Assembly (NCBI GenBank): GCA_963834265.1
Contig: CAWIAU010000001.1
Span: 263,572 to 327,571 of the forward strand
DNA length: 64,000 bases
Source of the DNA: an uncultured bacterium
Lineage (GTDB): Bacteria; Patescibacteriota; Saccharimonadia; Saccharimonadales; 2-12-FULL-41-12
Direction: 5' to 3'
In this document: one piece after another, positions 11,041 through 41,272 of the stretch
Numbering within the stretch: the first letter of the stretch is position 1
How the letters are laid out: every line of letters starts with the position of its first letter
Made by a program: the position numbers and the translations under genes
The notes under the pieces: generated by a model
Told to the model about the DNA's origin: nothing
Seen by the model: only the letters and a program-made list of their open reading frames with translations
Database searches by the model: none

Positions 11041-11301
11041 CCGTCACAGTGTTTATCACTGCGGCTTGAGAATGTAGCGCCAGTTTTCTTTTCAGAAAAC
11101 AACAGAAGCGATGATGAGTTTTTAACTTCTCTAAAGTCGCCCTGTATAAACGAGTAAAAAAGATTCTGTCTGATACTTCAATTCCTTCGCCGGAAGCTTC
11201 GGCTTTGGCATGGAAGCGATAGTGTCCGATAGAATTTCATTGAGATTGAGAAGAAAGCTGACCTCTATAAGCACATACTTTGGTAAGTACTGTGACGGGG
11301 C
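11041..11301 (+). other. 23S helix-63-region expansion / possible intervening sequence (~260 nt)
   Basis: Closed by an 11-bp stem CCGTCACAGTG (11042-11052) / TACTGTGACGG (11289-11299). It replaces a helix of about 45 nt between GGGAtAAGG.. and ..AACTGTTTAccAAAAACACAG. Confidence 0.6.
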
Positions 11302-13815: not shown

Positions 13816-14063
13816 AGTTACATAATAGCAGAAATAATTTTTGATTTGTTCTCCCAAGAAGCGGAAGCAAAAAATAGTGAAATAAATTCCCAATATCCTG
13901 CGATTTATAATGTTAAGAGATTATTCCGTAATTTAGCAAGAGTGTAATAAGTTTGTCACTTATTCTAGAATTAGGGTTGATTTTAGAATAAAGGCGTTTA
14001 TAATTCTATTTGAATAGACCAACCCCAAGGCTTATTCCACACGAAACTATCAATATTAGAATT

Positions 14064-18534: not shown

Positions 18535-18732
18535 AAATACGATTTTTGCTGTGGATAAGCCATATTTTAAGCCAGACACAATACCACGTCAGGAATTGCA
18601 TAAATATATACAAATTTTAGCAATATAACAGACTAGAGTAGTAATTAGTGTTGTGCAAAAGTCTATGATTAATTTTATTCACTGTAAAAATCAACAGAGG
18701 CGGAATAGATACAAAAATGTATTCATTTTGGC

Positions 18733-18761
18733 TTGCACCTCTGTTTGAAAAGAGTCATACT
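18733..18761 (+). promoter_or_regulatory. candidate promoter of giant gene 1
   Basis: TTGCAC (18733-18738), a 17-nt spacer, then CATACT (18756-18761). An A-rich leader follows, with no clear SD. Confidence 0.4.
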
Positions 18762-18826
18762 GTTGGCAGTTATTTACTAATATAAATAGTAAAAACTAAA
18801 ACAAAAACCAAAAACAAAAACAAATA

Positions 18827-21800: not shown

Positions 21801-24800
21801 TAACTATTACAGGCACTAACAGTGGCGAAGGCAGTACGCCGGGCCTTAGTGTTACTTACGGATTCGGTGCTAACACCGCCGTACAGGGCAGCACCCAGCT
21901 TACCTGTGCTTCCGGCAGTGGTGATCTGTCCGGTGGCGGCACTGTCATAACTCTGGGCAGCGGCGGTACCTGCGGTGCCATAACCATATCCGAAGCCCCC
22001 GTCTTTGATACCAGCGTTACCACCCCGCTTATTACTTACGGCGGCGCCCTGACCATCCAGACCACCGCTACCGGTGGCGCTGATGATCTGATCTTTAAAA
22101 CCGCCGGCACGGAAGTTATGCGCCTGCTGGAAAACGGCAATATTTATCTGGAGAAAGGCACTAATGATGTCACCATAGCCGTAAATGCTCCCGGTGCCGC
22201 CGCCACCTACACCTTTGACGGAGCCAGCGGAACTATCCTGACCACTGCCAACTACGTTACTAACCTCGACGCTACCTACGTAAACGAATCCCAGTCGCCG
22301 GCCGCCGGCGATGTCTCCGGTTCATTCACAGCCGGTTTCAGTGTTAACGATGTCCAGAACAATGCCGTTGATCTGGGAGCCGAGACAGTCGGGGACTACA
22401 TGGCCAACCTCGGCACCGTAGTCGGATTAACTATTACAGGCACTAACAGTGGCGAAGGCAGTACGCCGGGCCTTAGTGTTACTTACGGATTCGGTGCTAA
22501 CACCGCCGTACAGGGCAGCACCCAGCTTACCTGTGCTTCCGGCAGTGGTGATCTGTCCGGTGGCGGCACTGTCATAACTCTGGGCAGCGGCGGTACCTGC
22601 GGTGCCATAACCATATCCGAAGCCCCCGTCTTTGATACCAGCGTTACCACCCCGCTTATTACTTACGGCGGCGCCCTGACCATCCAGACCACCGCTACCG
22701 GTGGCGCTGATGATCTGATCTTTAAAACCGCCGGCACGGAAGTTATGCGCCTGCTGGAAAACGGCAATATTTATCTGGAGAAAGGCACTAATGATGTCAC
22801 CATAGCCGTAAATGCTCCCGGTGCCGCCGCCACCTACACCTTTGACGGAGCCAGCGGAACTATCCTGACCACTGCCAACTACGTTACTAACCTCGACGCT
22901 ACCTACGTAAACGAATCCCAGTCGCCGGCCGCCGGCGATGTCTCCGGTTCATTCACAGCCGGTTTCAGTGTTAACGATGTCCAGAACAATGCCGTTGATC
23001 TGGGAGCCGAGACAGTCGGGGACTACATGGCCAACCTCGGCACCGTAGTCGGATTAACTATTACAGGCACTAACAGTGGCGAAGGCAGTACGCCGGGCCT
23101 TAGTGTTACTTACGGATTCGGTGCTAACACCGCCGTACAGGGCAGCACCCAGCTTACCTGTGCTTCCGGCAGTGGTGATCTGTCCGGTGGCGGCACTGTC
23201 ATAACTCTGGGCAGCGGCGGTACCTGCGGTGCCATAACCATATCCGAAGCCCCCGTCTTTGATACCAGCGTTACCACCCCGCTTATTACTTACGGCGGCG
23301 CCCTGACCATCCAGACCACCGCTACCGGTGGCGCTGATGATCTGATCTTTAAAACCGCCGGCACGGAAGTTATGCGCCTGCTGGAAAACGGCAATATTTA
23401 TCTGGAGAAAGGCACTAATGATGTCACCATAGCCGTAAATGCTCCCGGTGCCGCCGCCACCTACACCTTTGACGGAGCCAGCGGAACTATCCTGACCACT
23501 GCCAACTACGTTACTAACCTCGACGCTACCTACGTAAACGAATCCCAGTCGCCGGCCGCCGGCGATGTCTCCGGTTCATTCACAGCCGGTTTCAGTGTTA
23601 ACGATGTCCAGAACAATGCCGTTGATCTGGGAGCCGAGACAGTCGGGGACTACATGGCCAACCTCGGCACCGTAGTCGGATTAACTATTACAGGCACTAA
23701 CAGTGGCGAAGGCAGTACGCCGGGCCTTAGTGTTACTTACGGATTCGGTGCTAACACCGCCGTACAGGGCAGCACCCAGCTTACCTGTGCTTCCGGCAGT
23801 GGTGATCTGTCCGGTGGCGGCACTGTCATAACTCTGGGCAGCGGCGGTACCTGCGGTGCCATAACCATATCCGAAGCCCCCGTCTTTGATACCAGCGTTA
23901 CCACCCCGCTTATTACTTACGGCGGCGCCCTGACCATCCAGACCACCGCTACCGGTGGCGCTGATGATCTGATCTTTAAAACCGCCGGCACGGAAGTTAT
24001 GCGCCTGCTGGAAAACGGCAATATTTATCTGGAGAAAGGCACTAATGATGTCACCATAGCCGTAAATGCTCCCGGTGCCGCCGCCACCTACACCTTTGAC
24101 GGAGCCAGCGGAACTATCCTGACCACTGCCAACTACGTTACTAACCTCGACGCTACCTACGTAAACGAATCCCAGTCGCCGGCCGCCGGCGATGTCTCCG
24201 GTTCATTCACAGCCGGTTTCAGTGTTAACGATGTCCAGAACAATGCCGTTGATCTGGGAGCCGAGACAGTCGGGGACTACATGGCCAACCTCGGCACCGT
24301 AGTCGGATTAACTATTACAGGCACTAACAGTGGCGAAGGCAGTACGCCGGGCCTTAGTGTTACTTACGGATTCGGTGCTAACACCGCCGTACAGGGCAGC
24401 ACCCAGCTTACCTGTGCTTCCGGCAGTGGTGATCTGTCCGGTGGCGGCACTGTCATAACTCTGGGCAGCGGCGGTACCTGCGGTGCCATAACCATATCCG
24501 AAGCCCCCGTCTTTGATACCAGCGTTACCACCCCGCTTATTACTTACGGCGGCGCCCTGACCATCCAGACCACCGCTACCGGTGGCGCTGATGATCTGAT
24601 CTTTAAAACCGCCGGCACGGAAGTTATGCGCCTGCTGGAAAACGGCAATATTTATCTGGAGAAAGGCACTAATGATGTCACCATAGCCGTAAATGCTCCC
24701 GGTGCCGCCGCCACCTACACCTTTGACGGAGCCAGCGGAACTATCCTGACCACTGCCAACTACGTTACTAACCTCGACGCTACCTACGTAAACGAATCCC

Positions 24801-27388
24801 AGTCGCCGGCCGCCGGCGATGTCTCCGGTTCATTCACAGCCGGTTTCAGTGTTAACGATGTCCAGAACAATGCCGTTGATCTGGGAGCCGAGACAGTCGG
24901 GGACTACATGGCCAACCTCGGCACCGTAGTCGGATTAACTATTACAGGCACTAACAGTGGCGAAGGCAGTACGCCGGGCCTTAGTGTTACTTACGGATTC
25001 GGTGCTAACACCGCCGTACAGGGCAGCACCCAGCTTACCTGTGCTTCCGGCAGTGGTGATCTGTCCGGTGGCGGCACTGTCATAACTCTGGGCAGCGGCG
25101 GTACCTGCGGTGCCATAACCATATCCGAAGCCCCCGTCTTTGATACCAGCGTTACCACCCCGCTTATTACTTACGGCGGCGCCCTGACCATCCAGACCAC
25201 CGCTACCGGTGGCGCTGATGATCTGATCTTTAAAACCGCCGGCACGGAAAAAATTCGAATATTAGAAAATGGCACACTGGTATTTGGTACTGGTGCCAAC
25301 AGTGCTAATTTGTACTTGTCTGCAAATGACACTCTGAGGACGGATGATCTGTTTGTAGCAGGAGCAGGATTAAGCGTGTTAGCAAATGGTGCTACAATTG
25401 CTGGTGATTTCAGTATCGACGGACTGGTATTTGATCCAACAGGTAATCTTGTGCTAAACGACACCGTGGATATTGGCTCAGCTACAACAGGACTTCGGGT
25501 AAATACGGACGGGTCAATATTCGACATTGATGGTGTTCTTGTTTTAAACGATCAACTAAACCTAGGCTCATCCTCAACAGGTCTATTAATTACTACATCA
25601 GGAATAATTACGGATATTGATGGGGCAAGTGTTGTATTTGGTGAAAACATCACTGTAAATACAGGAGGTATTACCGTAACAGGCAATAGCACTATTAATG
25701 GGACGCTCGGGTCTTTGACCGGCTTGACTGTAATTAGTGGAGGAGCATCGATAAGTGGAGGCTTGAATAATAACAGTGGCGGACTGACTAACGCCGGATC
25801 TATTACAGGAGTAGGCGGTAATATAACAGGATCAGGAAGTATGACTATATCCTCCGGAGCTGCTGCGGCACTGACGCTAGATTCCGGAACAACCGGTGGC
25901 CTGAACATCGGCACCGGCAATAATGCCAAAACCATCAATATCGGCACCGGTACGGCCGGCAACGCTATCAACATCGGTACCAATAACACCACGGCCGACA
26001 CGATCCAGATTGGCTCGGCTCTGGATACGCTGACGCTCACGGGTTCCTCTTTAACTACATTTGTAATCAACGCAATAACCGTAGACGCTACCGAGTTTAA
26101 CCGGCTCGACGGCAAAAACGCAGCACTGGTTGATGAAAATGACTTCATCAGCGGGGACGGAACTGGCGGTACAAGCAATGGGTCCGGATTGGAAGCAGGT
26201 ACCGGTGGAATTGGGCTATTGCAAGGTTGCACCAACAATCAAATTTTGAAATGGGTAGATGCAAGTTCTGTCTGGAACTGCGCGGCTGACGCCACAGGTA
26301 TTTCTGATTCCCGGGTTAAGAAAAATGTCCAAACTGTCGAAGGAGCTATGCTGGATAAAATTAAGGATATTCGGGTAGTAGAATTTGACTATGACTGCAC
26401 CAGCCCGGCGTTTGCTTACCAGCACTGCGACATAGACCACCAAACAGGTGTTATCGCGCAGGAACTTGCTCAAATCTTTCCGGAACTTGTCACCCAGGAT
26501 GAGCACGGCTATTATAGCGTTAGATACGACGCATTAGCCATCTATAACCTCAAAGCCGTGGGAGAACTAGCACGTTCGTTAGATTCTCAAGGTAACGGTA
26601 AGTTTAATAATGTTTCATCAAATTCACTTGTTGTAAAAGGAGATATTATAGCTGGCACAATCCGTGCTGACAGGATAGAAGGCCTGGACTATGTTGGCCG
26701 GTTTGAATCTTTGGAAGAAAGAGTAGACCATCTTGAGAAAAATAATAACTTTCAGAATAATAACTTTGCGGGCACAGTAGAAGTTGGTTCATTGATTGCC
26801 AATAAAGAAGTTGACCTAAAAAATGATGTGCGAATTAACGGTAGCACAGACCTGCAGAGATTAAATGTAAATCTTGCTTTAATCGCCAAAGACTCCTTTG
26901 AAGTGCTAGGAAGATCTACCTTCAAAGAGGCGTCCGGATTCGAGAAAGATGTACATTTTGATGGCCAAATTAACGTGCTTGGTTACACGAATGTCCAGGG
27001 CCTAAGCGTAAACCTTGACTTGATTGTTAAAGGCTCATTGCAGCTCGACGGGCCGGCCACCTTCAAGGAGGCAGTCAAATTCGAGAAAGACGCTGAATTT
27101 GCGGGTAATGTGTCTGTAAAAGGACAGGCCACGTTCAACGGTGATACGGCGGGGTATGCCATCATTAAAAAAGGCGAAAAAAGCCTTGCGATTAAGTTTA
27201 AAAACCCTAAGCCACAAATACCGATCGTTACCATGTCGCTTGGTAATGGCAAGTTTGCCTCCTACAGTTACCAGAATGTAACAAAAGAGGGCTTCGAGAT
27301 TATTCTGGCTAATGCCGCTGACGAAGATCTTAGCTTCTCATGGATTGCTATTCTAACCCAAAGTGAGGAAATTTCTGCTATGCCGTAG
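18827..27388 (+). CDS. giant repetitive fibre/adhesin-like surface protein 1 (2,853 aa) with internal S74-type autoprocessing domain
   Basis: Uninterrupted 8,562-nt ORF. It has an N-terminal signal/anchor (LALVFLLLFLTGVF), 8.76 identical 209-aa repeats, G/T/N-rich repeats, ISDSRVKKNV..GVIAQELAQIFPELV..YSVRYDALAIYNLKA (S74/ICA pattern), and then 361 aa counted from the Ser to the C-terminus. Confidence 0.9.
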   Translation: MLSQRPRFYNLLVRGKSLALVFLLLFLTGVFSYTRTHTPTPVYAATSANINFQARLQSASGAIVPDGNYHMEFKLYTSASGGSAVWTETRSTGNLVRTVNGYLTVNLGSVNAFPSGMNWDQEHWLTMNVGGSGGSPVYDGEMTPRLKLTATPYAFSAGQLRKTLGANTSVLDFLNPTANRTLNLPDQDGTLCVQGSPDCVDVATTGTTATTSSNSGLEIGIDGLRLLGGCSDNQSLKWDATAEEWKCTSGSGSSIGVRESDGSPSMSADVIEFGPSGASDSEFIVTNEGSGVSRIRLGNDVLLLTNYAATLDATYVNESQSPAAGDVSGSFTAGFSVNDVQNNAVDLGAETVGDYMANLGTVVGLTITGTNSGEGSTPGLSVTYGFGANTAVQGSTQLTCASGSGDLSGGGTVITLGSGGTCGAITISEAPVFDTSVTTPLITYGGALTIQTTATGGADDLIFKTAGTEVMRLLENGNIYLEKGTNDVTIAVNAPGAAATYTFDGASGTILTTANYVTNLDATYVNESQSPAAGDVSGSFTAGFSVNDVQNNAVDLGAETVGDYMANLGTVVGLTITGTNSGEGSTPGLSVTYGFGANTAVQGSTQLTCASGSGDLSGGGTVITLGSGGTCGAITISEAPVFDTSVTTPLITYGGALTIQTTATGGADDLIFKTAGTEVMRLLENGNIYLEKGTNDVTIAVNAPGAAATYTFDGASGTILTTANYVTNLDATYVNESQSPAAGDVSGSFTAGFSVNDVQNNAVDLGAETVGDYMANLGTVVGLTITGTNSGEGSTPGLSVTYGFGANTAVQGSTQLTCASGSGDLSGGGTVITLGSGGTCGAITISEAPVFDTSVTTPLITYGGALTIQTTATGGADDLIFKTAGTEVMRLLENGNIYLEKGTNDVTIAVNAPGAAATYTFDGASGTILTTANYVTNLDATYVNESQSPAAGDVSGSFTAGFSVNDVQNNAVDLGAETVGDYMANLGTVVGLTITGTNSGEGSTPGLSVTYGFGANTAVQGSTQLTCASGSGDLSGGGTVITLGSGGTCGAITISEAPVFDTSVTTPLITYGGALTIQTTATGGADDLIFKTAGTEVMRLLENGNIYLEKGTNDVTIAVNAPGAAATYTFDGASGTILTTANYVTNLDATYVNESQSPAAGDVSGSFTAGFSVNDVQNNAVDLGAETVGDYMANLGTVVGLTITGTNSGEGSTPGLSVTYGFGANTAVQGSTQLTCASGSGDLSGGGTVITLGSGGTCGAITISEAPVFDTSVTTPLITYGGALTIQTTATGGADDLIFKTAGTEVMRLLENGNIYLEKGTNDVTIAVNAPGAAATYTFDGASGTILTTANYVTNLDATYVNESQSPAAGDVSGSFTAGFSVNDVQNNAVDLGAETVGDYMANLGTVVGLTITGTNSGEGSTPGLSVTYGFGANTAVQGSTQLTCASGSGDLSGGGTVITLGSGGTCGAITISEAPVFDTSVTTPLITYGGALTIQTTATGGADDLIFKTAGTEVMRLLENGNIYLEKGTNDVTIAVNAPGAAATYTFDGASGTILTTANYVTNLDATYVNESQSPAAGDVSGSFTAGFSVNDVQNNAVDLGAETVGDYMANLGTVVGLTITGTNSGEGSTPGLSVTYGFGANTAVQGSTQLTCASGSGDLSGGGTVITLGSGGTCGAITISEAPVFDTSVTTPLITYGGALTIQTTATGGADDLIFKTAGTEVMRLLENGNIYLEKGTNDVTIAVNAPGAAATYTFDGASGTILTTANYVTNLDATYVNESQSPAAGDVSGSFTAGFSVNDVQNNAVDLGAETVGDYMANLGTVVGLTITGTNSGEGSTPGLSVTYGFGANTAVQGSTQLTCASGSGDLSGGGTVITLGSGGTCGAITISEAPVFDTSVTTPLITYGGALTIQTTATGGADDLIFKTAGTEVMRLLENGNIYLEKGTNDVTIAVNAPGAAATYTFDGASGTILTTANYVTNLDATYVNESQSPAAGDVSGSFTAGFSVNDVQNNAVDLGAETVGDYMANLGTVVGLTITGTNSGEGSTPGLSVTYGFGANTAVQGSTQLTCASGSGDLSGGGTVITLGSGGTCGAITISEAPVFDTSVTTPLITYGGALTIQTTATGGADDLIFKTAGTEKIRILENGTLVFGTGANSANLYLSANDTLRTDDLFVAGAGLSVLANGATIAGDFSIDGLVFDPTGNLVLNDTVDIGSATTGLRVNTDGSIFDIDGVLVLNDQLNLGSSSTGLLITTSGIITDIDGASVVFGENITVNTGGITVTGNSTINGTLGSLTGLTVISGGASISGGLNNNSGGLTNAGSITGVGGNITGSGSMTISSGAAAALTLDSGTTGGLNIGTGNNAKTINIGTGTAGNAINIGTNNTTADTIQIGSALDTLTLTGSSLTTFVINAITVDATEFNRLDGKNAALVDENDFISGDGTGGTSNGSGLEAGTGGIGLLQGCTNNQILKWVDASSVWNCAADATGISDSRVKKNVQTVEGAMLDKIKDIRVVEFDYDCTSPAFAYQHCDIDHQTGVIAQELAQIFPELVTQDEHGYYSVRYDALAIYNLKAVGELARSLDSQGNGKFNNVSSNSLVVKGDIIAGTIRADRIEGLDYVGRFESLEERVDHLEKNNNFQNNNFAGTVEVGSLIANKEVDLKNDVRINGSTDLQRLNVNLALIAKDSFEVLGRSTFKEASGFEKDVHFDGQINVLGYTNVQGLSVNLDLIVKGSLQLDGPATFKEAVKFEKDAEFAGNVSVKGQATFNGDTAGYAIIKKGEKSLAIKFKNPKPQIPIVTMSLGNGKFASYSYQNVTKEGFEIILANAADEDLSFSWIAILTQSEEISAMP
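19757..25249 (+). repeat. in-frame tandem repeat, 8.76 x 627 bp, no differences seen between copies
   Basis: The landmark ACGCTACCTA recurs at 19761, 20388, 21015 and onward. GGCACGGAA at 20225 and 25241 are 8 x 627 bp apart. All translated units are identical. Confidence 0.95.
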
Positions 27389-29680: not shown

Positions 29681-32600
29681 ATGTATCAAGAAACTCAAAC
29701 CAAAAGCCGTTCCAGAGTGTACGTTACCGTAGGTGATGCGGCGGAGCTATTAGGTGTTTCTATCGATACTGTCCGACGTTGGGAAAAGAGCGGCAAACTG
29801 CATGCTAAACGATTAGATGGCAAGAATCGATACTTCCCCAAAGATGAATTAGAGCAATTCAGAGCTCATCAGCCCCTGTCTACAACAGAAGTGGCTAAGC
29901 GACTTAAGACCTCTGCTTCCAGCGTACGTCGTCTCGAAGCTAGTGGCCAGATAACGGCTGACCGTGCTGAGAACGGAAAGCGTCTTTACTCTTTGGCAAG
30001 TATAGTTGACTATTTGGAAAGTAAATCTGCTCCATTGCAACCAGCAATATCAGATAAACAGGAATTAGCGTCAGGTGTAGCCCTGAATCAGGTAACACCG
30101 ATGCCGGCACTGACTATCGCACCGCCACCGCGTCAACATACCCCGCGTCATGGATTAAAGCATCATTTACAGCAGCCTAAGAAGTTATGGGCTACTCATT
30201 CCGGCAGATTAAATTACCATATTTTTCAAAAAGTAATCATCTATAGTGCTACGGCATGTGTCTCCGTAGTGATGATATTGACGCTATTCTTTCTGATGTT
30301 TCCGGGAACTGCCCGCACGACATTTTATAATCAATCCCATAACAGTGGTAAACAGTTTGTTTCGAAACAAGCTGACGGTCTCTTAGTACGGGCCTTCAAG
30401 CCCTTTACAAATGCAGCCCTGGGCGTTGTCGAGGTAGTTAACCCGGAAGTCCGCAATACTATTCAGCCTAGGGCCATAGATGACGTGAATGAAGTATTCG
30501 CGCCTGACTCGCAGGGAAATATTATCACCAGGTACACCTTTAGCCCGCCGAACTCATCTTATCTGAAGATACCAGATCAGGGGTTAGTTACAAATCTGAA
30601 TAGTGAATTTGTCGGAGGCTATAAACCGGGCGAAAAGAAAGGAGATCTGGCTATCTTACCTCTGGGAGGTGATCAGCTTAAAGATAAGTCACTTAATGGT
30701 GACCAGCTGGCCGATGGAGCAATTAAGCTTAGCCATCTTTCTCCTACTTTGATAGCTTCTCTGAAGAGCGGAGGCACAGGAGGAAGTACTTTTGTAAGCG
30801 GTGCTGGCAGCGCCGGACCAGCAGGCCCATCAGGAGTTAACGGGGCGGCTGGAGCTGCAGGTGCCAACGGTGCTCCCGGTTCTCAAGGAGTAGCAGGTCC
30901 AGCCGGAGCAGCCGGACCTGCTGGATCACAAGGAGCTAACGGGGCACCGGGTGCTCCAGGAGCACAAGGCCCGACTGGTCCGCAAGGACCTCCAGGCGCT
31001 GGAGCTACGATAGCCTTGCAAGAGTCTGACGGTAGTCCGCTGGTTAGCGGCGTATCAAACATACAGTTTGGACCCACCAGCAACTCTTCTGACGAGTTTA
31101 TCCTGACAGACTTAACAGGAGGTCAGGTACGAATACAACTGGGCACTACGGTGCTTCTAACAACGAATTACACTACTACTCTGGATCCTATATATCTCAA
31201 TATTGGAGAATCTCCCGGGATCGGAGATATTACGGGCAGCTTCAGCGGGGGTTTGCAGGTAGCACCTGATGCGGTGGCGCTAGGTACCGATACCACTGGT
31301 AATTATTTAACTACTCTATCTGGCAGCACGGGTCTAATTGTCAGTGGATCGGGTTCAGAAAATGCGGCAGCTAGCATTGCTTTAGACGTAGTTACTACTG
31401 GTACAACAGGATTGTCCAGTGCCAACTCCGGGCTTGAGTTGGGTCCCGACGGTCTGCGTTTGCTTGGTGGATGCGCAACAAACCATGTATTGAAATGGAA
31501 CGGAACTACTTGGGCATGTGCTACCGATAACAGTAGTAGCGCTGCTGATGTTAAGGAAAATGGTGTAATTATTACTCCCACAGCAACAGCTATAGATTTT
31601 TTCGGTTCAGATTTTAATGTAACCAACAATGTTACGCAGGCAAATATAGCATTAGATTATATTAACTCGGGAATTACTCGTCGCACGGGGGCAGAGATAA
31701 TAAGCGGCAACTGGGCATTTAATGATAATAGCTTTACGCTGCAAGATAATGCTGACTCTAGTAAAAAACTTGCAATAGAATTATCGGGAATTACAACAGG
31801 AACAACGCGTACTTTAACAGCCCCAAACGCCAGCGGGACCATCATTAGCACGGGGAATTTAACTGACATTGTAAATGTGGGTACGCTCACAAGCGGTGTT
31901 TGGCAGGGTTCTGTTGTAGCCGTGCAGTATGGGGGAACAGGGGCCAACACCTTTACGTCTAACGGATTGCTATATGGAAATGGCAACAGTGCTGTACAGG
32001 CCACATCCGCGGGCACGGCCGGACAATTATTAGTTGCAAATGCTAGCAGTGTACCAACGTTTGCTACTCTATCGGGTGATGCGACCTTATCTGGCGCCGG
32101 CCTGCTAACATTAGCTAACTCGGGCGTTACAGCAAATACTTATGGAAGCTCAACTCAGGTACCGGTTTTTGCGGTTGACTCAAAAGGTAGAATCACTAAT
32201 GTAACTAATACAACAATAACAGGGGTCGCACCGGGTGGAACCGCCGGAGGTGATTTGAGTGGAACTTATCCCAACCCAAGCGTTTCAAGAATCAATGGAG
32301 TCGCTCTTGGTAGTACAACGGCAACGGGAGGAAATTTGCTGCTTGCCAATGGTACAAGCTGGGTCAGTCAAGCTCTTTCGGGAGATTTAAGTGTAAATGG
32401 GGCAGGCGTTGCCTCGATAGCAAACAACGCCATCAGTACCTCAAAAATTTTGGACGCCAATGTAACAAACATTAAATTAGCAAACTCCTCCTTAACAGTT
32501 ATGGCTGGAACAGGATTATCTGGCGGAGGAGCTATAAGTTTAGGTGGCACGACTACGCTTAACTTAGCTAATACGGCTGTATCGGCAGGGAGTTACGGCA

Positions 32601-35600
32601 GTAGCTCCGCGGTCCCTACTTTTACTGTAGATTCCCAGGGACGGCTGACAATGGCTGGTAATACAACCTTAGCTAATGCGGGACTGCAGAATTCAAGTTT
32701 GACCTTAACAGCGGGCAATGGACTAGCCGGGGGAGGAAGCGTTGCTTTAGGCGCATCTACAAGCCTTAACGTTCAGTATGGTGCTATCGCGAATACATCT
32801 GTCCAAGGCAATACTCAGATTACTTGTACGCCTGGTGCTGGTAATTTGTCCGGAGGGGGTACGGTTATAACACTGGGCTCAGGTGGAGCATGTGGTGCTA
32901 TTAATACGAATGCAGCGGTAAATTTTGCTACAAGTGTTACAACTCCACTACTTACGTCCATTGGTCCGATTACAATACAATCTGATCCCAGTGTTGGTAG
33001 TGACGACATAATATTCAATAGTGCCGGTAGCGAGATTTTTCGTTTACTTGAAACAGGGGAATTTAAGTTTGAACGCGGCTCAAACGATGCGTTCTTTTCT
33101 ATTGCAACTCCTAGTGGCGCGCCTGCTACTTATACTTTTTCCGGCGTATCCGGAACTGTCCTTACTAGTTCAAATTTCAGCAGTAGCTTAGACAGTTCTT
33201 ATGTGAACATAGGCGAATCCCCGTCAGCTGGCGACATTAACGGATCATTTGGGGGAGGTTTAAGCATTGGATCAGACGCAGTTGCTTTAGGGACAGACAC
33301 TACAGGCAACTATCTGGCTACACTTAGCGGAGGCACAGGATTGACAGTTACTGGATCTGGCAGCGAAAGTGCTGCGGTGACTTTAGCGCTCGATGTAATA
33401 ACTACAGGAACAACAGCTACTACAAACTCTAACTCTGGCTTAGAACTCGGTAGTGACGGGCTAAGATTGCTGGGGGGTTGTGCTTCTAATGAGATACTCA
33501 AATGGAATGGATCAACTTGGGCTTGCGCTGCAGATAATGGTACCGGAGCTGCTCCCACACTTCAAGAGAATTATGACAATGATCCCAATGGAGCGAATGT
33601 GATAATTGGATTGTCCAATGTTGACGGGGGTATATTTATTCGTGATAACGCGTCGCCAATTGGCGGTAACTTATTTGCCGTACAAAGCGACGGAGGTAGC
33701 ACTACTTATTTAGGTATCACTGCAAGTGGATCCAGCGTATCGGGAACTTTCTCGGCGACCGGTGCTATTAATGGCGCCACCATTTCTGGTGGCTCTCTAA
33801 ACTCTACTTCGGTTAATGGTCTTAGTGTTTCGGGGGGCATTATAACTGTGGGTACCTGGAATGGTACTGCTCTAACAGACTCTTATGTTTCTGATACTCT
33901 AACCTCAAGTATTTTCATAGGTTCAGGAAGTACATCAAATGCTGTAGATTTAGCTAGTGCCGAAGTAGCCGGCAGCCTGGCCGACGGAAATGTCTCAGAT
34001 ACCTTAACCATAGGTGCTTCCGGCAGCGTGGCTGACGGAGCTTTAAGTGTCAACGTGACTAAACTGGGGACTGCCATAGACCTGGCTACAGCTGAGGTAG
34101 CCGGTAATCTGAGAGCTAATAATCTGCAGAGTGCCGGAGCCGACCTTGGCGCGACTAATGTTAACATTGACCTGAGCAATACCAACGGAAGCTTCGTCAC
34201 CAACTTAACCGTAGACGGTACTATTACTGCCGCTACCTTTGCCGGCAACCTGACAGGTAATGTCACCGGCAACGCTTCAACCGCTACCGCTCTGGCTAAC
34301 AATCCGACAGATTGCGGAGCCAACCAGTTCGCCATTACCATTGCCGCCAGCGGTAACCTGACCTGCGCCGCGCTGACTGATGCCGATATACCGAATAACA
34401 TTACAATTGATCTGGCTGCCAACGCCACCACAGCTGTTAATCTGGTTGGTTCCGGCAGTACCACCAATGCCGTAGATCTGGCTACAGCTGAGGTATCCGG
34501 CAACTTACGGGCTAACAACCTGCAGAACGCCGCCGCCGACCTGGGAGGAGCTGACGTCAACATTAACCTCAGCAATACCAACGGAAGCTTCGTGACTAAT
34601 CTGACGGTTGACGGCACCATCACCGCCGCCACCTTTGCCGGCGCTCTTACGGGCAATGTCACCGGTAATGTCACCGGCAACGCTTCAACCGCTACCGCTC
34701 TGGCTAACAATCCGACAGATTGCGGAGCCAACCAGTTCGCCATTACCATTGCCGCCAGCGGTAACCTGACCTGCGTGTCCTTAACAGATCTGGATATACC
34801 GAACAACATTACAATTGATCTGGCTGCCGCCGCTACCGCGCTGGCTAACAACCCCACTGACTGTAGCGCTGATACTTACGCTACTACTATCGCTGCCAGC
34901 GGTAACCTGACTTGTGCTTCCATTACCGACGCTTCATTATCTGCTAACGTCACTAAACTGGGCAGTAGTATCCAAAACAGTGAAGTAGACGACGACCTGA
35001 CTATTAGTGCTTCCGGCAGCGTGGCTGACGGAGCTTTAAGTGTCAACGTGACTAAACTGGGGACTGCCATAGACCTGGCTACAGCTGAGGTAGCCGGTAA
35101 TCTGAGAGCTAATAATCTGCAGAGTGCCGGAGCCGACCTTGGCGCGACTAATGTTAACATTGACCTGAGCAATACCAACGGAAGCTTCGTCACCAACTTA
35201 ACCGTAGACGGTACTATTACTGCCGCTACCTTTGCCGGCAACCTGACAGGTAATGTCACCGGCAACGCTTCAACCGCTACCGCTCTGGCTAACAATCCGA
35301 CAGATTGCGGAGCCAACCAGTTCGCCATTACCATTGCCGCCAGCGGTAACCTGACCTGCGCCGCGCTGACTGATGCCGATATACCGAATAACATTACAAT
35401 TGATCTGGCTGCCAACGCCACCACAGCTGTTAATCTGGTTGGTTCCGGCAGTACCACCAATGCCGTAGATCTGGCTACAGCTGAGGTATCCGGCAACTTA
35501 CGGGCTAACAACCTGCAGAACGCCGCCGCCGACCTGGGAGGAGCTGACGTCAACATTAACCTCAGCAATACCAACGGAAGCTTCGTGACTAATCTGACGG

Positions 35601-38600
35601 TTGACGGCACCATCACCGCCGCCACCTTTGCCGGCGCTCTTACGGGCAATGTCACCGGTAATGTCACCGGCAACGCTTCAACCGCTACCGCTCTGGCTAA
35701 CAATCCGACAGATTGCGGAGCCAACCAGTTCGCCATTACCATTGCCGCCAGCGGTAACCTGACCTGCGTGTCCTTAACAGATCTGGATATACCGAACAAC
35801 ATTACAATTGATCTGGCTGCCGCCGCTACCGCGCTGGCTAACAACCCCACTGACTGTAGCGCTGATACTTACGCTACTACTATCGCTGCCAGCGGTAACC
35901 TGACTTGTGCTTCCATTACCGACGCTTCATTATCTGCTAACGTCACTAAACTGGGCAGTAGTATCCAAAACAGTGAAGTAGACGACGACCTGACTATTAG
36001 TGCTTCCGGCAGCGTGGCTGACGGAGCTTTAAGTGTCAACGTGACTAAACTGGGGACTGCCATAGACCTGGCTACAGCTGAGGTAGCCGGTAATCTGAGA
36101 GCTAATAATCTGCAGAGTGCCGGAGCCGACCTTGGCGCGACTAATGTTAACATTGACCTGAGCAATACCAACGGAAGCTTCGTCACCAACTTAACCGTAG
36201 ACGGTACTATTACTGCCGCTACCTTTGCCGGCAACCTGACAGGTAATGTCACCGGCAACGCTTCAACCGCTACCGCTCTGGCTAACAATCCGACAGATTG
36301 CGGAGCCAACCAGTTCGCCATTACCATTGCCGCCAGCGGTAACCTGACCTGCGCCGCGCTGACTGATGCCGATATACCGAATAACATTACAATTGATCTG
36401 GCTGCCAACGCCACCACAGCTGTTAATCTGGTTGGTTCCGGCAGTACCACCAATGCCGTAGATCTGGCTACAGCTGAGGTATCCGGCAACTTACGGGCTA
36501 ACAACCTGCAGAACGCCGCCGCCGACCTGGGAGGAGCTGACGTCAACATTAACCTCAGCAATACCAACGGAAGCTTCGTGACTAATCTGACGGTTGACGG
36601 CACCATCACCGCCGCCACCTTTGCCGGCGCTCTTACGGGCAATGTCACCGGTAATGTCACCGGCAACGCTTCAACCGCTACCGCTCTGGCTAACAATCCG
36701 ACAGATTGCGGAGCCAACCAGTTCGCCATTACCATTGCCGCCAGCGGTAACCTGACCTGCGTGTCCTTAACAGATCTGGATATACCGAACAACATTACAA
36801 TTGATCTGGCTGCCGCCGCTACCGCGCTGGCTAACAACCCCACTGACTGTAGCGCTGATACTTACGCTACTACTATCGCTGCCAGCGGTAACCTGACTTG
36901 TGCTTCCATTACCGACGCTTCATTATCTGCTAACGTCACTAAACTGGGCAGTAGTATCCAAAACAGTGAAGTAGACGACGACCTGACTATTAGTGCTTCC
37001 GGCAGCGTGGCTGACGGAGCTTTAAGTGTCAACGTGACTAAACTGGGGACTGCCATAGACCTGGCTACAGCTGAGGTAGCCGGTAATCTGAGAGCTAATA
37101 ATCTGCAGAGTGCCGGAGCCGACCTTGGCGCGACTAATGTTAACATTGACCTGAGCAATACCAACGGAAGCTTCGTCACCAACTTAACCGTAGACGGTAC
37201 TATTACTGCCGCTACCTTTGCCGGCAACCTGACAGGTAATGTCACCGGCAACGCTTCAACCGCTACCGCTCTGGCTAACAATCCGACAGATTGCGGAGCC
37301 AACCAGTTCGCCATTACCATTGCCGCCAGCGGTAACCTGACCTGCGCCGCGCTGACTGATGCCGATATACCGAATAACATTACAATTGATCTGGCTGCCA
37401 ACGCCACCACAGCTGTTAATCTGGTTGGTTCCGGCAGTACCACCAATGCCGTAGATCTGGCTACAGCTGAGGTATCCGGCAACTTACGGGCTAACAACCT
37501 GCAGAACGCCGCCGCCGACCTGGGAGGAGCTGACGTCAACATTAACCTCAGCAATACCAACGGAAGCTTCGTGACTAATCTGACGGTTGACGGCACCATC
37601 ACCGCCGCCACCTTTGCCGGCGCTCTTACGGGCAATGTCACCGGTAATGTCACCGGCAACGCTTCAACCGCTACCGCTCTGGCTAACAATCCGACAGATT
37701 GCGGAGCCAACCAGTTCGCCATTACCATTGCCGCCAGCGGTAACCTGACCTGCGTGTCCTTAACAGATCTGGATATACCGAACAACATTACAATTGATCT
37801 GGCTGCCGCCGCTACCGCGCTGGCTAACAACCCCACTGACTGTAGCGCTGATACTTACGCTACTACTATCGCTGCCAGCGGTAACCTGACTTGTGCTTCC
37901 ATTACCGACGCTTCATTATCTGCTAACGTCACTAAACTGGGCAGTAGTATCCAAAACAGTGAAGTAGACGACGACCTGACTATTAGTGCTTCCGGCAGCG
38001 TGGCTGACGGAGCTTTAAGTGTCAACGTGACTAAACTGGGGACTGCCATAGACCTGGCTACAGCTGAGGTAGCCGGTAATCTGAGAGCTAATAATCTGCA
38101 GAGTGCCGGAGCCGACCTTGGCGCGACTAATGTTAACATTGACCTGAGCAATACCAACGGAAGCTTCGTCACCAACTTAACCGTAGACGGTACTATTACT
38201 GCCGCTACCTTTGCCGGCAACCTGACAGGTAATGTCACCGGCAACGCTTCAACCGCTACCGCTCTGGCTAACAATCCGACAGATTGCGGAGCCAACCAGT
38301 TCGCCATTACCATTGCCGCCAGCGGTAACCTGACCTGCGCCGCGCTGACTGATGCCGATATACCGAATAACATTACAATTGATCTGGCTGCCAACGCCAC
38401 CACAGCTGTTAATCTGGTTGGTTCCGGCAGTACCACCAATGCCGTAGATCTGGCTACAGCTGAGGTATCCGGCAACTTACGGGCTAACAACCTGCAGAAC
38501 GCCGCCGCCGACCTGGGAGGAGCTGACGTCAACATTAACCTCAGCAATACCAACGGAAGCTTCGTGACTAATCTGACGGTTGACGGCACCATCACCGCCG

Positions 38601-41272
38601 CCACCTTTGCCGGCGCTCTTACGGGCAATGTCACCGGTAATGTCACCGGCAACGCTTCAACCGCTACCGCTCTGGCTAACAATCCGACAGATTGCGGAGC
38701 CAACCAGTTCGCCATTACCATTGCCGCCAGCGGTAACCTGACCTGCGTGTCCTTAACAGATCTGGATATACCGAACAACATTACAATTGATCTGGCTGCC
38801 GCCGCTACCGCGCTGGCTAACAACCCCACTGACTGTAGCGCTGATACTTACGCTACTACTATCGCTGCCAGCGGTAACCTGACTTGTGCTTCCATTACCG
38901 ACGCTTCATTATCTGCTAACGTCACTAAACTGGGCAGTAGTATCCAAAACAGTGAAGTAGACGACGACCTGACTATTAGTGCTTCCGGCAGCGTGGCTGA
39001 CGGAGCTTTAAGTGTCAACGTGACTAAACTGGGGACTGCCATAGACCTGGCTACAGCTGAGGTAGCCGGTAATCTGAGAGCTAATAATCTGCAGAGTGCC
39101 GGAGCCGACCTTGGCGCGACTAATGTTAACATTGACCTGAGCAATACCAACGGAGCCTTCGTCACCAACTTAACTCTGGATGGCAGCATAACCGCACCAA
39201 TAGTGCAGAATGCTGGAGCAATAACGCTAGGCACGACGGCAACAGCCGGAGGGGACGATATAGTACTACAAACAGCTGGAGTCGAGCGGTTTAGAATATT
39301 AGAAAACGGCAATATATCCAACGCCAATAGCTGGACAATAGATTTGTCCAGTACCTCTGCCAGGACGCTTACTGTAACCAATAGCAATACTGGTGTGGCC
39401 AGCTTGAGTGTCGAAGGAGGAGGTACTTTTGGCAATACGCTTACCGTATCGACTGGAGGACTGACAGTAACAGGGAACAGCACCATTACGGGTACACTTA
39501 CCGGTCTCACAGGTCTGACGGTGGCTTCAGGTGGGGCATCTGTTAGTGGCGGCCTAAATAATAATAGTGGAGGTATTACTAATGCCGGAGCAATCTCTGG
39601 CGCTACGACGATATCTGCATCAGGGGCAGTAACTGCCGCCACCGTCACCAATACAATAAATGGCCTGATAATTAATTCGGGCGCAGTATCGGGAGCCACA
39701 ACTATATCAGCTTCAGGCAACATTTCGATTAACGGAACTAATGTGTATACGCAAAACAGCCAGAACGGCATAACCGTAGCTGCCTGTGCAGCTGATCAAT
39801 ATATAGGTAATGGAGTAAGGCTATCCGGTGGAATTGTTACAGCTGGTTCTTGCAGGACTGATGCGACCGGTATTTCTGACTCAAGGCTAAAAGATAATGT
39901 ATCTGAGTACGATTCTTCAAACATATTAGATAAGTTAGCTCAACTTAAGCCAGTTACTTATAATTTTAATGACACGTATAAAGATCTAACTGGTAAACAA
40001 GAGGACCAAGGACTTCAATATGGTTTCTTGGCTCAGGATATGAGGAATATTTTTCCGGACTTAATTAGCGAATATAACGACAGTGGTTATTTGCAAATAA
40101 ATTACCATGCGCTCTATGCGATCCTGACTTCTTCTGTCCTGGAATTAGATAAAAAAGTTAAAAATCTCAGCATGAATAGCTTCACCGATCTTGATGGCAG
40201 CGGACTCGAGATTAAGCTAAAATACGACCAGAAATTTAGTATTAAAAATGAGCAGAACGAAGACAAAGCTGTTATTGATGCTCAAGGCAATGCGATATTT
40301 GACGGTGAAATTACAACAAGAAGTATAAATGCCGGATCAATCTTAACTTCTGGTGTTGGTCAGCGGTATGATGCTGCCGATACGGATCTTGAGACAGGGG
40401 AAGTCGTAATCGTTGATGATAACGGACAAGTGCACCGCTCAACTGCAGCCAACCAGAGAGGTCTTATTGGAGTAATTAGTAGCAATGGGGGACTTATGGT
40501 CGGCTCAAGTTCCAGTAGCAATAGTGTCAACGTAGCTGCGGCAGGAAATGTGAGTGTAAGAGTTTCTACGGAGAATGGTGTTATAAGTGCCGGTGATCCA
40601 TTAACTTCATCATCGATTCCAGGTGTGGCCATGAAATCCAGCGGCGGCTCCACAATAGGAGTGGCCACAAGCGGATTCAGCGGTTCCGGACAAGGGCAAA
40701 TTACAATGAGTGCGAGCAACAATAGCTCGAGCTTAGCAGGATTAGGTGATCTGAATAGTCTCGAAAATAAAGTTAGTGATCTGGAGGAGCAGGTTCAGAC
40801 TATCCAAAATGGGCTTCAAACAAACGGTGGACAAAATATTGACCTCACCAACCTAACCATAGGCCGAGCTACTATTACACTGGATATGTTGGTTGAGGGG
40901 GCTCTGATAGTCAATGGACCTGCTGAGTTCAAGGGTAGCACGATCTTTGATAGCATCGTAACCTTTGGAGACAGCATTATGGTGAATGGCGACCTAAGCG
41001 TCAAAGGTACAGCTACGTTTAATAATAATGCCGGGGGATATGCTGTTATTTCGGCTGGCAAACAATCCGTTCATGTTAGCTTCACTAAGCCTTATGCTAC
41101 TCCTCCAATTGTCAATATATCACTGGGCGGAGGTCAGTTTGCTCAATACGCCTACAACAATGTTACGGAAACAGGCTTTGATATAGTTCTGGCAATACCG
41201 GCATCATCGAACCTGCAGTTTACTTGGACTGCTATGAGCATCAACAGCGCCAACACCTTTGTTCAGAACTAA
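29681..41272 (+). CDS. giant membrane-anchored fibre-like protein 2 (3,863 aa): 2 x HTH, TM, collagen, repeats, S74-type domain
   Basis: Uninterrupted 11,592-nt ORF. Residues 13-60 and 66-113 are MerR/excisionase-type HTH (VTVGDAAELLGVSIDTVRRWEKSGKL..). The TM helix spans residues 184-207. There are about 22 Gly-X-Y triplets and 5.17 identical 331-aa repeats. ISDSRLKDNV..YGFLAQDMRNIFPDLI..LQINYHALYAIL is the S74 pattern, and 465 aa run from the Ser to the C-terminus. Confidence 0.9.
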   Translation: MYQETQTKSRSRVYVTVGDAAELLGVSIDTVRRWEKSGKLHAKRLDGKNRYFPKDELEQFRAHQPLSTTEVAKRLKTSASSVRRLEASGQITADRAENGKRLYSLASIVDYLESKSAPLQPAISDKQELASGVALNQVTPMPALTIAPPPRQHTPRHGLKHHLQQPKKLWATHSGRLNYHIFQKVIIYSATACVSVVMILTLFFLMFPGTARTTFYNQSHNSGKQFVSKQADGLLVRAFKPFTNAALGVVEVVNPEVRNTIQPRAIDDVNEVFAPDSQGNIITRYTFSPPNSSYLKIPDQGLVTNLNSEFVGGYKPGEKKGDLAILPLGGDQLKDKSLNGDQLADGAIKLSHLSPTLIASLKSGGTGGSTFVSGAGSAGPAGPSGVNGAAGAAGANGAPGSQGVAGPAGAAGPAGSQGANGAPGAPGAQGPTGPQGPPGAGATIALQESDGSPLVSGVSNIQFGPTSNSSDEFILTDLTGGQVRIQLGTTVLLTTNYTTTLDPIYLNIGESPGIGDITGSFSGGLQVAPDAVALGTDTTGNYLTTLSGSTGLIVSGSGSENAAASIALDVVTTGTTGLSSANSGLELGPDGLRLLGGCATNHVLKWNGTTWACATDNSSSAADVKENGVIITPTATAIDFFGSDFNVTNNVTQANIALDYINSGITRRTGAEIISGNWAFNDNSFTLQDNADSSKKLAIELSGITTGTTRTLTAPNASGTIISTGNLTDIVNVGTLTSGVWQGSVVAVQYGGTGANTFTSNGLLYGNGNSAVQATSAGTAGQLLVANASSVPTFATLSGDATLSGAGLLTLANSGVTANTYGSSTQVPVFAVDSKGRITNVTNTTITGVAPGGTAGGDLSGTYPNPSVSRINGVALGSTTATGGNLLLANGTSWVSQALSGDLSVNGAGVASIANNAISTSKILDANVTNIKLANSSLTVMAGTGLSGGGAISLGGTTTLNLANTAVSAGSYGSSSAVPTFTVDSQGRLTMAGNTTLANAGLQNSSLTLTAGNGLAGGGSVALGASTSLNVQYGAIANTSVQGNTQITCTPGAGNLSGGGTVITLGSGGACGAINTNAAVNFATSVTTPLLTSIGPITIQSDPSVGSDDIIFNSAGSEIFRLLETGEFKFERGSNDAFFSIATPSGAPATYTFSGVSGTVLTSSNFSSSLDSSYVNIGESPSAGDINGSFGGGLSIGSDAVALGTDTTGNYLATLSGGTGLTVTGSGSESAAVTLALDVITTGTTATTNSNSGLELGSDGLRLLGGCASNEILKWNGSTWACAADNGTGAAPTLQENYDNDPNGANVIIGLSNVDGGIFIRDNASPIGGNLFAVQSDGGSTTYLGITASGSSVSGTFSATGAINGATISGGSLNSTSVNGLSVSGGIITVGTWNGTALTDSYVSDTLTSSIFIGSGSTSNAVDLASAEVAGSLADGNVSDTLTIGASGSVADGALSVNVTKLGTAIDLATAEVAGNLRANNLQSAGADLGATNVNIDLSNTNGSFVTNLTVDGTITAATFAGNLTGNVTGNASTATALANNPTDCGANQFAITIAASGNLTCAALTDADIPNNITIDLAANATTAVNLVGSGSTTNAVDLATAEVSGNLRANNLQNAAADLGGADVNINLSNTNGSFVTNLTVDGTITAATFAGALTGNVTGNVTGNASTATALANNPTDCGANQFAITIAASGNLTCVSLTDLDIPNNITIDLAAAATALANNPTDCSADTYATTIAASGNLTCASITDASLSANVTKLGSSIQNSEVDDDLTISASGSVADGALSVNVTKLGTAIDLATAEVAGNLRANNLQSAGADLGATNVNIDLSNTNGSFVTNLTVDGTITAATFAGNLTGNVTGNASTATALANNPTDCGANQFAITIAASGNLTCAALTDADIPNNITIDLAANATTAVNLVGSGSTTNAVDLATAEVSGNLRANNLQNAAADLGGADVNINLSNTNGSFVTNLTVDGTITAATFAGALTGNVTGNVTGNASTATALANNPTDCGANQFAITIAASGNLTCVSLTDLDIPNNITIDLAAAATALANNPTDCSADTYATTIAASGNLTCASITDASLSANVTKLGSSIQNSEVDDDLTISASGSVADGALSVNVTKLGTAIDLATAEVAGNLRANNLQSAGADLGATNVNIDLSNTNGSFVTNLTVDGTITAATFAGNLTGNVTGNASTATALANNPTDCGANQFAITIAASGNLTCAALTDADIPNNITIDLAANATTAVNLVGSGSTTNAVDLATAEVSGNLRANNLQNAAADLGGADVNINLSNTNGSFVTNLTVDGTITAATFAGALTGNVTGNVTGNASTATALANNPTDCGANQFAITIAASGNLTCVSLTDLDIPNNITIDLAAAATALANNPTDCSADTYATTIAASGNLTCASITDASLSANVTKLGSSIQNSEVDDDLTISASGSVADGALSVNVTKLGTAIDLATAEVAGNLRANNLQSAGADLGATNVNIDLSNTNGSFVTNLTVDGTITAATFAGNLTGNVTGNASTATALANNPTDCGANQFAITIAASGNLTCAALTDADIPNNITIDLAANATTAVNLVGSGSTTNAVDLATAEVSGNLRANNLQNAAADLGGADVNINLSNTNGSFVTNLTVDGTITAATFAGALTGNVTGNVTGNASTATALANNPTDCGANQFAITIAASGNLTCVSLTDLDIPNNITIDLAAAATALANNPTDCSADTYATTIAASGNLTCASITDASLSANVTKLGSSIQNSEVDDDLTISASGSVADGALSVNVTKLGTAIDLATAEVAGNLRANNLQSAGADLGATNVNIDLSNTNGSFVTNLTVDGTITAATFAGNLTGNVTGNASTATALANNPTDCGANQFAITIAASGNLTCAALTDADIPNNITIDLAANATTAVNLVGSGSTTNAVDLATAEVSGNLRANNLQNAAADLGGADVNINLSNTNGSFVTNLTVDGTITAATFAGALTGNVTGNVTGNASTATALANNPTDCGANQFAITIAASGNLTCVSLTDLDIPNNITIDLAAAATALANNPTDCSADTYATTIAASGNLTCASITDASLSANVTKLGSSIQNSEVDDDLTISASGSVADGALSVNVTKLGTAIDLATAEVAGNLRANNLQSAGADLGATNVNIDLSNTNGAFVTNLTLDGSITAPIVQNAGAITLGTTATAGGDDIVLQTAGVERFRILENGNISNANSWTIDLSSTSARTLTVTNSNTGVASLSVEGGGTFGNTLTVSTGGLTVTGNSTITGTLTGLTGLTVASGGASVSGGLNNNSGGITNAGAISGATTISASGAVTAATVTNTINGLIINSGAVSGATTISASGNISINGTNVYTQNSQNGITVAACAADQYIGNGVRLSGGIVTAGSCRTDATGISDSRLKDNVSEYDSSNILDKLAQLKPVTYNFNDTYKDLTGKQEDQGLQYGFLAQDMRNIFPDLISEYNDSGYLQINYHALYAILTSSVLELDKKVKNLSMNSFTDLDGSGLEIKLKYDQKFSIKNEQNEDKAVIDAQGNAIFDGEITTRSINAGSILTSGVGQRYDAADTDLETGEVVIVDDNGQVHRSTAANQRGLIGVISSNGGLMVGSSSSSNSVNVAAAGNVSVRVSTENGVISAGDPLTSSSIPGVAMKSSGGSTIGVATSGFSGSGQGQITMSASNNSSSLAGLGDLNSLENKVSDLEEQVQTIQNGLQTNGGQNIDLTNLTIGRATITLDMLVEGALIVNGPAEFKGSTIFDSIVTFGDSIMVNGDLSVKGTATFNNNAGGYAVISAGKQSVHVSFTKPYATPPIVNISLGGGQFAQYAYNNVTETGFDIVLAIPASSNLQFTWTAMSINSANTFVQN
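30800..31006 (+). repeat. collagen-like Gly-X-Y tract (~22 uninterrupted triplets)
   Basis: GAGSAGPAGPSGVNGAAGAAGANGAPGSQGVAGPAGAAGPAGSQGANGAPGAPGAQGPTGPQGPPGAGA, with Gly at every third position. Confidence 0.9.
34013..39152 (+). repeat. in-frame tandem repeat, 5.17 x 993 bp, no differences seen between copies; each unit has degenerate internal sub-repeats
   Basis: TGCTTCCGGCAGCG occurs at 34015, 35008 ... 38980 (5 x 993). The antisense ORFs recur at exactly 993-bp spacing with identical translations. Confidence 0.95.

Follow-up and report, generated by a model that had tools for sequence, protein, structure and literature searches.

A 209-residue module found once in one giant protein of a Saccharimonadia chromosome and tandemly repeated in its neighbour, with variable copy number among relatives

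The DNA analysed here (64,000 nucleotides of contig CAWIAU010000001.1 from an uncultured member of the Saccharimonadales, positions 263,572 to 327,571; hereafter the window) contains two very long open reading frames (ORFs), named giant 1 and giant 2, which are located on the same strand and separated by 2.3 kb (Table 1). A module of 209 amino acids forms a tandem array in giant 1 and is found as one full-length, diverged copy in giant 2, and the number of its copies differs among the relatives of both proteins. This module is probably a stalk segment of membrane-anchored fibres that carry a Peptidase_S74 domain and whose length would vary by unequal recombination.

One unit of giant 1 was aligned with the whole giant 2 by the Smith-Waterman local algorithm (BLOSUM62, gap penalties 11/1). 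The alignment is collinear over the residues 1033-1228 of giant 2, with two small gaps and 108 identical columns out of 199 (54%), and its score is 553, whereas 300 composition-preserving shuffles of the unit gave scores of 91.5±8.7 with a maximum of 118 (z≈53). BLASTP detected the same match with an E-value of 7e-56. A first-pass annotation, made from the sequence alone, had placed the shared module at positions 32771-33400 (residues 1031-1240 of giant 2), had judged by eye that roughly half of the positions are identical and had proposed the comparison with shuffled sequences. The profile envelope (32777-33400) shows that these borders were right to within two codons, the estimate of identity agrees with the alignment, and the 8.8-fold amplification announced for giant 1 corresponds to 8.76 copies of 627 nt without any mismatch. 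The match described as circularly permuted is indeed collinear, and the permutation is a matter of register, which is arbitrary in a tandem array. Likewise, the module is single in giant 2 when full-length copies are counted, but a profile made from the two sequences also recovered two partial copies.

The resemblance of the giant-2 module to the giant-1 unit is a true homology. A purely compositional likeness between fibrous sequences rich in Gly, Thr, Ala and Ser could be invoked, as T, G, A, V and S represent 59% of the unit and shuffling the unit leaves a score of about 90 against giant 2. This explanation is rejected by the distance between the observed score and the shuffles, by the full-length collinear match and by 49 columns that do not vary among 24 copies drawn from 14 proteins; all these columns, including both cysteines, are conserved in the giant-2 copy; its probability is practically negligible. 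That one giant recently acquired its module from the other within this genome, by transfer or gene conversion in either direction, would be favoured by the proximity of the two genes on the same strand and by the several other segments that they share. However, the nucleotide identity of the two modules is only 55%, the same codon is used at only 26 of 111 identical residues, and the GC (guanine plus cytosine) content of four-fold degenerate third positions is 0.331 in the giant-2 copy against 0.649 in the giant-1 unit. The giant-2 copy is moreover the most divergent of those compared, with 52-62% identity to the other copies and 67% to its closest match, and it groups with the modules of proteins of the giant-2 type. 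A recent conversion is rejected by these values and remains very improbable. Because of the low identity, at both the amino acid and nucleotide levels, and of the low codon agreement, the status of the giant-2 copy as an old paralog, without recent transfer, is supported.

The motifs characteristic of the family, which are a Cys...Cys pair, DD, PxxGD and YVN, are present in the giant-2 copy. The unit of 209 residues, initially considered as one domain, is a composite of shorter segments and not an indivisible domain. Its segments are found apart from one another in both giants and most relatives, and 108 of the 156 scanned proteins contain partial matches only (151 database proteins plus the giants of the window and of the related loci, two of which duplicate database entries). 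A word-indexed protein search with the unit gave only five short fragments, and an exhaustive profile search was needed. The sole part matched in these five proteins is the cysteine-loop segment 'YG..ANT.VQG.T..TC..G.G.LSGGG..ITLG.GG.CG', which is followed by unrelated sequence. The module does not match any described family: no Pfam family covers it, no NCBIfam family matches it, PHROGs gave only sub-threshold fragments of unknown function, and the profile search of the PDB gave nothing meaningful (best E-value 0.04).

The exhaustive search covered 1.84 billion cluster representatives, with the family defined by the profiles A1 and A3, and detected 269 related representatives at E≤1e-3, of which 37 at E≤1e-30. 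The closest relatives were assigned to the giant-1 type or to the giant-2 type according to the similarity of their N- and C-terminal parts. All five proteins of the giant-1 type (anchor plus head) contain at least two tandem copies of the module: 8.76 in giant 1 (2853 aa), 6.76 in P0006 (2636 aa), 2.76 in P0009 (2447 aa), and two full copies each in P0011 (1179 aa) and P0015 (1364 aa). Giant 1, P0006 and P0009 share the borders of the array, and the partial copies found at its two ends are the same. P0006 is encoded on a complete chromosome of 1.19 Mb (OY970327.1), and its nearly perfect array displays seven variant nucleotides, which define two variants of the unit with three copies each. 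Concerning the giant-2 type (two helix-turn-helix, or HTH, stretches plus a membrane span), one full copy is found in giant 2, P0013, P0014 and P0031, two in P0010, P0016, P0026 and the giant of locus L002, three in P0042, five in P0008 and six in P0007.

A tree of 28 full-length copies was obtained by neighbour joining with 200 bootstraps. The modules of the giant-1 type form their own clade (79%), and the copies mostly cluster by protein, as in P0007, P0010 and P0011 (96.5-100%). The giant-1 unit is 90% identical to the first copy of P0009 and 81% to the second, while these two copies are 83% identical to each other, and it groups with the first copy with a bootstrap value of 97%. Because the unit pairs with one particular copy of P0009, the ancestor of both proteins already possessed at least two distinguishable tandem copies, and the array of giant 1 is an expansion and homogenisation of the copy-1 type. 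The eight full units of this array are identical in nucleotides, and the run of identical copies is recent.

The borders of the arrays suggest how the copy number may change. The identity run of giant 1 begins at 'LDATYVN' and ends at 'TAGTE', and these physical edges differ from the natural borders of the module that are revealed by giant 2. They fall, on both sides, within segments that have diverged homologues in the flanks: on the left, the flank ends with 'VLLLTNYAAT', which resembles the end of the unit 'ILTTANYVTN'; on the right, 'KIRILENGTLVFGTG' is homologous to 'VMRLLENGNIYLEKG' of the unit, 'KIRILENG' pairs with 'VMRLLENG', and the profile match extends to position 131 of the unit. 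Because diverged homologues of the unit continue in both flanks, we infer that unequal recombination between such segments could have created the array and could still resize it. The flanks of the giant-2 module are also recognisable. The segment 'QNSSLTLTAGNGLAGGGSVALGASTSLNVQ' (32687-32776) is found immediately 5' of the module, and 'TTGTT..LRLLGGC..W.C' (33401-33550) follows it directly. The segment 'QNSSLT.TAG.GL.GGGSVALG' before the module also stands at the start of the multi-copy runs of P0013, P0016 and the L002 giant, and the segment after the module closes the runs in P0014 and P0008; by comparison of flanks across relatives, the giant-2 module belongs to the run-terminating subtype. 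Because the segments that open and close runs in relatives also flank it, the giant-2 module fills the same kind of slot, at n=1 in giant 2 and with a variable n among the relatives.

The composition of synonymous sites distinguishes the arrays from the other copies. GC was measured at four-fold degenerate third positions in each segment and in the flanks of the same gene. It reaches 0.649±0.041 in the giant-1 unit (flanks 0.436 and 0.417), 0.575 in the 993-nt unit of a second array, proper to giant 2 (flanks 0.33-0.40), and 0.788 in the P0006 unit (flanks 0.583 and 0.489). In the single module of giant 2 (0.331; flanks 0.364 and 0.331) and in the diverged copies 1 and 2 of P0009 (0.537 and 0.477; flanks 0.518 and 0.450) no such difference is observed. 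The increase of about 0.2 is thus restricted to the three homogenised arrays (both arrays of the window and L001 ~7868-12084). It may be the footprint of GC-biased gene conversion in recombining repeats, a process whose existence in bacteria is the hypothesis of PMC4450053 and whose predictions the pattern of the arrays fits.

Two further explanations concern the history and the reality of the giant-1 array. The first-pass annotation had considered the module as an ancestral single-copy domain of the family, amplified only in the giant-1 lineage of this genome. One full copy is indeed found in giant 2 and in 27 other representatives (including P0013, P0014 and P0031 of the giant-2 type), and the identical copies of giant 1 are necessarily recent. 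Nevertheless, the giant-1 group is already multi-copy in five proteins out of five, orthologs carry 6.76 and 2.76 copies within the same array borders, the 97% pairing with one P0009 copy implies that at least two copies predate the split, and relatives of the giant-2 type possess up to six full copies. An ancestral single copy is not shown by this phylogeny, which had also been proposed at the start and in which the giant-1 type has its own clade; the amplification is not specific to giant 1, and its recent character holds for the expansion to identical copies and not for the multi-copy state, which is older than the split between giant 1 and P0009. We consider this scenario as unlikely. The array, or at least its number of copies, could also be an artefact of assembly, the true gene containing one or few units: zero mismatches over 5.5 kb resemble an over-extended repeat, and a look-up did not find the giant proteins of this window in the protein collections. 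However, both arrays of the window keep the reading frame (627 = 3x209 and 993 = 3x331), orthologous arrays are found in a complete chromosome and in short-read contigs, and the unit has its own synonymous composition. In addition, two short-read contigs of ERR12037361 break at the outer edges of both arrays; their encoded proteins match gpsA and the 210-aa ORF that follows giant 2 without any difference. One contig ends at ~19781, when 25 nt of the giant-1 array have been covered from its left edge, and the other begins at ~39125, when 30 nt of the giant-2 array remain. Such breaks are the expected behaviour of a de Bruijn graph at a true repeat junction. Assemblers also collapse such repeats more often than they expand them. 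An artefact is therefore even less likely than the preceding scenario. The diverged copy of giant 2, which had been used as an argument against it, does not bear on the question, as it establishes the module as a real segment of protein and is silent on copy number. At locus L007 (20204-24004), the giant-2-type gene beside P0009 runs off a 200-kb contig inside its own module copy (profile position 184), which suggests that a repeat broke the short-read assembly there too.

The reading of the giants as fibres is based on their domains. Peptidase_S74 (PF13884) was detected above the gathering score in both proteins (47.4 and 51.6 bits for a cut-off of 22). The domain begins with the motif SDxRxK (SDSRVK at residues 2493-2498 of giant 1, SDSRLK at residues 3399-3404 of giant 2), whose Ser-Lys pair we take to be catalytic, as in endosialidase. 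In characterised proteins, this intramolecular-chaperone domain drives the assembly of trimers. By analogy with this role, and considering the fibrous composition and the collagen-like GXY run of giant 2 (weak NCBIfam and Pfam matches, far below the cut-offs, 30 versus 325 bits), both giants are presumably trimeric fibres. Their N-terminal hydrophobic segments (residues 17-33 in giant 1, 185-207 in giant 2) would place them at the cell surface. If self-cleavage occurs, the part distal to S74 would be released or held non-covalently. At the end of both giants lies a common domain of about 120 aa (43% identical between them), which in giant 2 gives a weak match to H-type lectins at residues 3797-3851. 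Our search of the literature on Saccharibacteria found no paper mentioning S74 or an intramolecular chaperone, and the only structures named in a cryo-tomography study of Mycosynbacter are pili and a conduit.

From these data, the following scenario is probable. The module would occupy array-prone slots of the fibre family, where homologous segments on both sides would permit unequal recombination, so that the copy number could rise or fall quickly and the copies would be homogenised within a gene. Giant 2 shows the n=1 state of the slot, and giant 1 displays a recently expanded and homogenised run of 8.76 copies, derived from the first of at least two copies in the ancestor shared with its closest known ortholog. 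The variable length of the fibre would then probably determine how far its distal end projects from the cell, by analogy with the Periscope proteins discussed below. Several observations weigh against this scenario. A rod is not supported by any structure: the AlphaFold2 monomer model of the giant-2 module, built from 24 aligned copies, is poor (mean predicted local distance difference test, pLDDT, 50.8; predicted template modelling score, pTM, 0.30), and the PDB profile search found no solved relative. S74 is not C-terminal, as 300-400 residues follow it in both giants (26303-27388 and 39875-41272), unlike in the phage proteins for which the role of S74 is established. The differences in copy number separate relatives at the level of species (about 70% identity in the head region) and not strains. 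The polarised AT-to-GC count in the giant-1 lineage is 18 versus 12, compared with 10 versus 12, at synonymous sites that are saturated. The giant-2 copy joins P0014 and two P0008 copies with a support of only 60%, and its n=1 state may be ancestral or a contraction. Finally, the exact copy number of giant 1 is that of the assembly and may be wrong by a copy or two.

Table 1. Positions in the window of the two giant ORFs, of their repeats and of their S74 domains.
Feature	Position	Strand	Residues or length	Details
Giant 1	18827..27388	+	2853 aa	ORF list, translation, Pfam
Diverged left flank of giant-1 array	19589..19756	+	residues 255-310	border sequence
Giant-1 tandem array	19757..25249	+	residues 311-2141	8.76 copies of 627 nt (209 aa); period self-match
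Diverged right flank of giant-1 array	25250..25387	+	residues 2142-2187	border sequence
Peptidase_S74, giant 1	26303-26494	+	residues 2493-2556	Pfam PF13884, E=2.4e-12
Giant 2	29681..41272	+	3863 aa	ORF list, translation, domain scan
Partial module copy, giant 2	31145..31393	+	residues 489-571	unit positions 126-211; profile 85.9 bits
Full-length module, giant 2	32777..33400	+	residues 1033-1240	profile match 375 bits, positions 1-211
Own array of giant 2	34014..39154	+		5.18 copies of 993 nt (331 aa), zero mismatches; unlike the 209-aa module
Partial module copy, giant 2	39113..39361	+	residues 3145-3227	unit positions 27-114; profile 34 bits
Peptidase_S74, giant 2	39875-40063	+	residues 3399-3461	Pfam PF13884

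Giant 2 is composed successively of two HTH_17/MerR stretches, a basic linker, a transmembrane segment, the collagen-like run (379-437), the module, its own array, Peptidase_S74 and a C-terminal region. The first partial copy contains the motif 'LD..Y.N...SP..GD..GSF ... A.ALGTDTTGNY' (BLASTP 39% identity, E=3e-7). The second, '...GGDDIVLQTAGVERFRILENG' (53% identity over 47 aa, E=4e-12), is situated at the junction between the array and the conserved C-terminal part. The 993-nt unit contains three cysteine loops 'NPTDC...LTC' and is found in P0008 and P0010 with 62-64% identity. Because this unit of 331 aa is absent from giant 1, each giant has amplified a different module. On the minus strand of the region 33883-39771, six ORFs follow one another at intervals of 993 nt; five of them have 324 aa and the other has 307 aa, and all are shadow ORFs of this array and not genes.

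Giant 1 is composed of an N-terminal hydrophobic anchor, a head region, the array, Peptidase_S74 and a C-terminal region of about 300 aa. The head domain of this type, of about 160 aa ('VYAATS..NFQARL...DG.Y..EF.LY...WDQ.HW'), is widespread in environmental contigs (metagenome loci L009-L088), where it is joined to other stalks without the 209-aa module. A metagenome scan with a profile of four heads recovered 80 loci, and the module is present in just one of them, the P0009 contig, which was known before; the same scan with the giant-1 head as single query found no relatives. Immediately 5' of the giant-1 start codon, an A/C-rich leader (18700-18826) contains imperfect AAAAAC repeats (5.5 copies at 18791-18824 according to Tandem Repeats Finder, TRF). 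No Shine-Dalgarno sequence is present in this leader, and a promoter-like box TTGCAC...CATACT lies upstream of it. The leader and the box are both kept in two giant-1 orthologs (L001 6790-6898 and L007 9900-10000).

The genes around the giants are housekeeping genes: the C-terminus of gyrA, a glycerophosphodiester phosphodiesterase, gpsA, ribosomal protein S1, initiation factor 2 (IF-2), fmt, priA, ftsA and a class II ribonucleotide reductase. Because such genes flank both giants, the window is a piece of cellular chromosome of Saccharimonadia (Candidate Phyla Radiation, CPR), and a phage is excluded. An origin as prophage tail fibres was similarly rejected, no phage structural or lysis gene being found in a neighbourhood that contains gpsA, S1, IF-2, a Fic protein and further housekeeping genes. 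The loci of the relatives come from metagenome-assembled genomes of Candidatus Saccharimonadia, and their gene order is kept, S1 and IF-2 coming after the giant genes, whether one or more. The Fic/DOC family protein, with a Fic_N domain, is encoded upstream of the giants (14010-15158). For the 172-aa gene between the giants, an exact look-up in the records gave no match.

At the N-terminus of giant 2 (residues 1-207, positions 29681-30301), a giant extracellular fibre is preceded, in one fused protein, by the two HTH_17/MerR stretches, the basic linker and a single membrane span. The same N-terminus is found in at least 10 other divergent giants (P0007, P0008, P0010, P0013, P0014, P0016, P0026, P0031, P0042 and the L002 giant). 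The fusion, being kept in at least 11 divergent representatives, is therefore not an error of gene calling. The proteins of this type might be one-component, contact-sensing transmembrane regulators, with a cytoplasmic HTH pair, a single span and an S74 fibre of more than 3,500 aa, although this function, suggested by domain order, is doubtful. If it were true, the episymbiont would sense the host cell, or be mechanically coupled to it, at a distance determined by how many stalk modules the fibre contains.

Saccharimonadia live attached to host bacteria, a lifestyle that needs multiple adhesins (PMC10633639), and their giant surface proteins are almost entirely uncharacterised. The present locus supplies a defined and searchable module, with its 269 related cluster representatives, and a clear case of fast copy-number turnover in what would be a surface fibre of the CPR. 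The single copy and the homogenised arrays constitute a natural experiment, the module having an ordinary codon composition when single and a raised synonymous GC when arrayed. A lesson for genome scans is that a diverged paralog validates a domain and not a repeat count.

The closest parallel is given by the Periscope proteins (SasG, Rib, Sgo_0707 and CdrA), for which a variable projection, obtained by intragenic recombination of repeats, has been proposed (Whelan et al. 2021, PMC8201768). These proteins contain long tandem repeats (>50 aa) that are near-identical in DNA, as does giant 1 with 8.76 copies of 209 aa at 100% identity, and their repeat number varies among related genomes, as here with 8.76, 6.76 and 2.76 copies at shared borders. 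In repeat identity and in copy variation the giants correspond to Periscope proteins, their surface location and rod shape being putative. Several features differ. The copy variation of the giants is documented across species-level lineages and not strains; the giants belong to a CPR bacterium and possess an N-terminal membrane segment instead of a C-terminal wall anchor; their S74 domain implies a trimeric fibre, in contrast to a monomeric string of globular domains; and their unit is a composite of 209 aa without known fold.

Phage fibres and tailspikes such as the K1F endosialidase and the T5 L-shaped tail fibre also possess a C-terminal intramolecular chaperone. Both giants share with them S74 with its Ser-Lys motif and a fibrous sequence upstream of it. 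Unlike these phage proteins, the giants are encoded among housekeeping genes, are membrane-anchored and 3-4 times longer, and their S74 is not terminal. With the collagen-like streptococcal adhesins Scl1 and Scl2, giant 2 shares the GXY run alone, which is consistent with a trimer. Giant1-5 of Apilactobacillus kunkeei (PMC12863079) are extracellular proteins of 3,000-8,000 aa that are encoded by consecutive genes and represent a large share of a small genome. The consecutive arrangement of giant genes is common to both, while the phylum and the domain content differ, the likeness being one of description. Repeat stalks of variable length whose copies evolve in concert are a familiar phenomenon; the protein family and the phylum that display it at this locus are unfamiliar.

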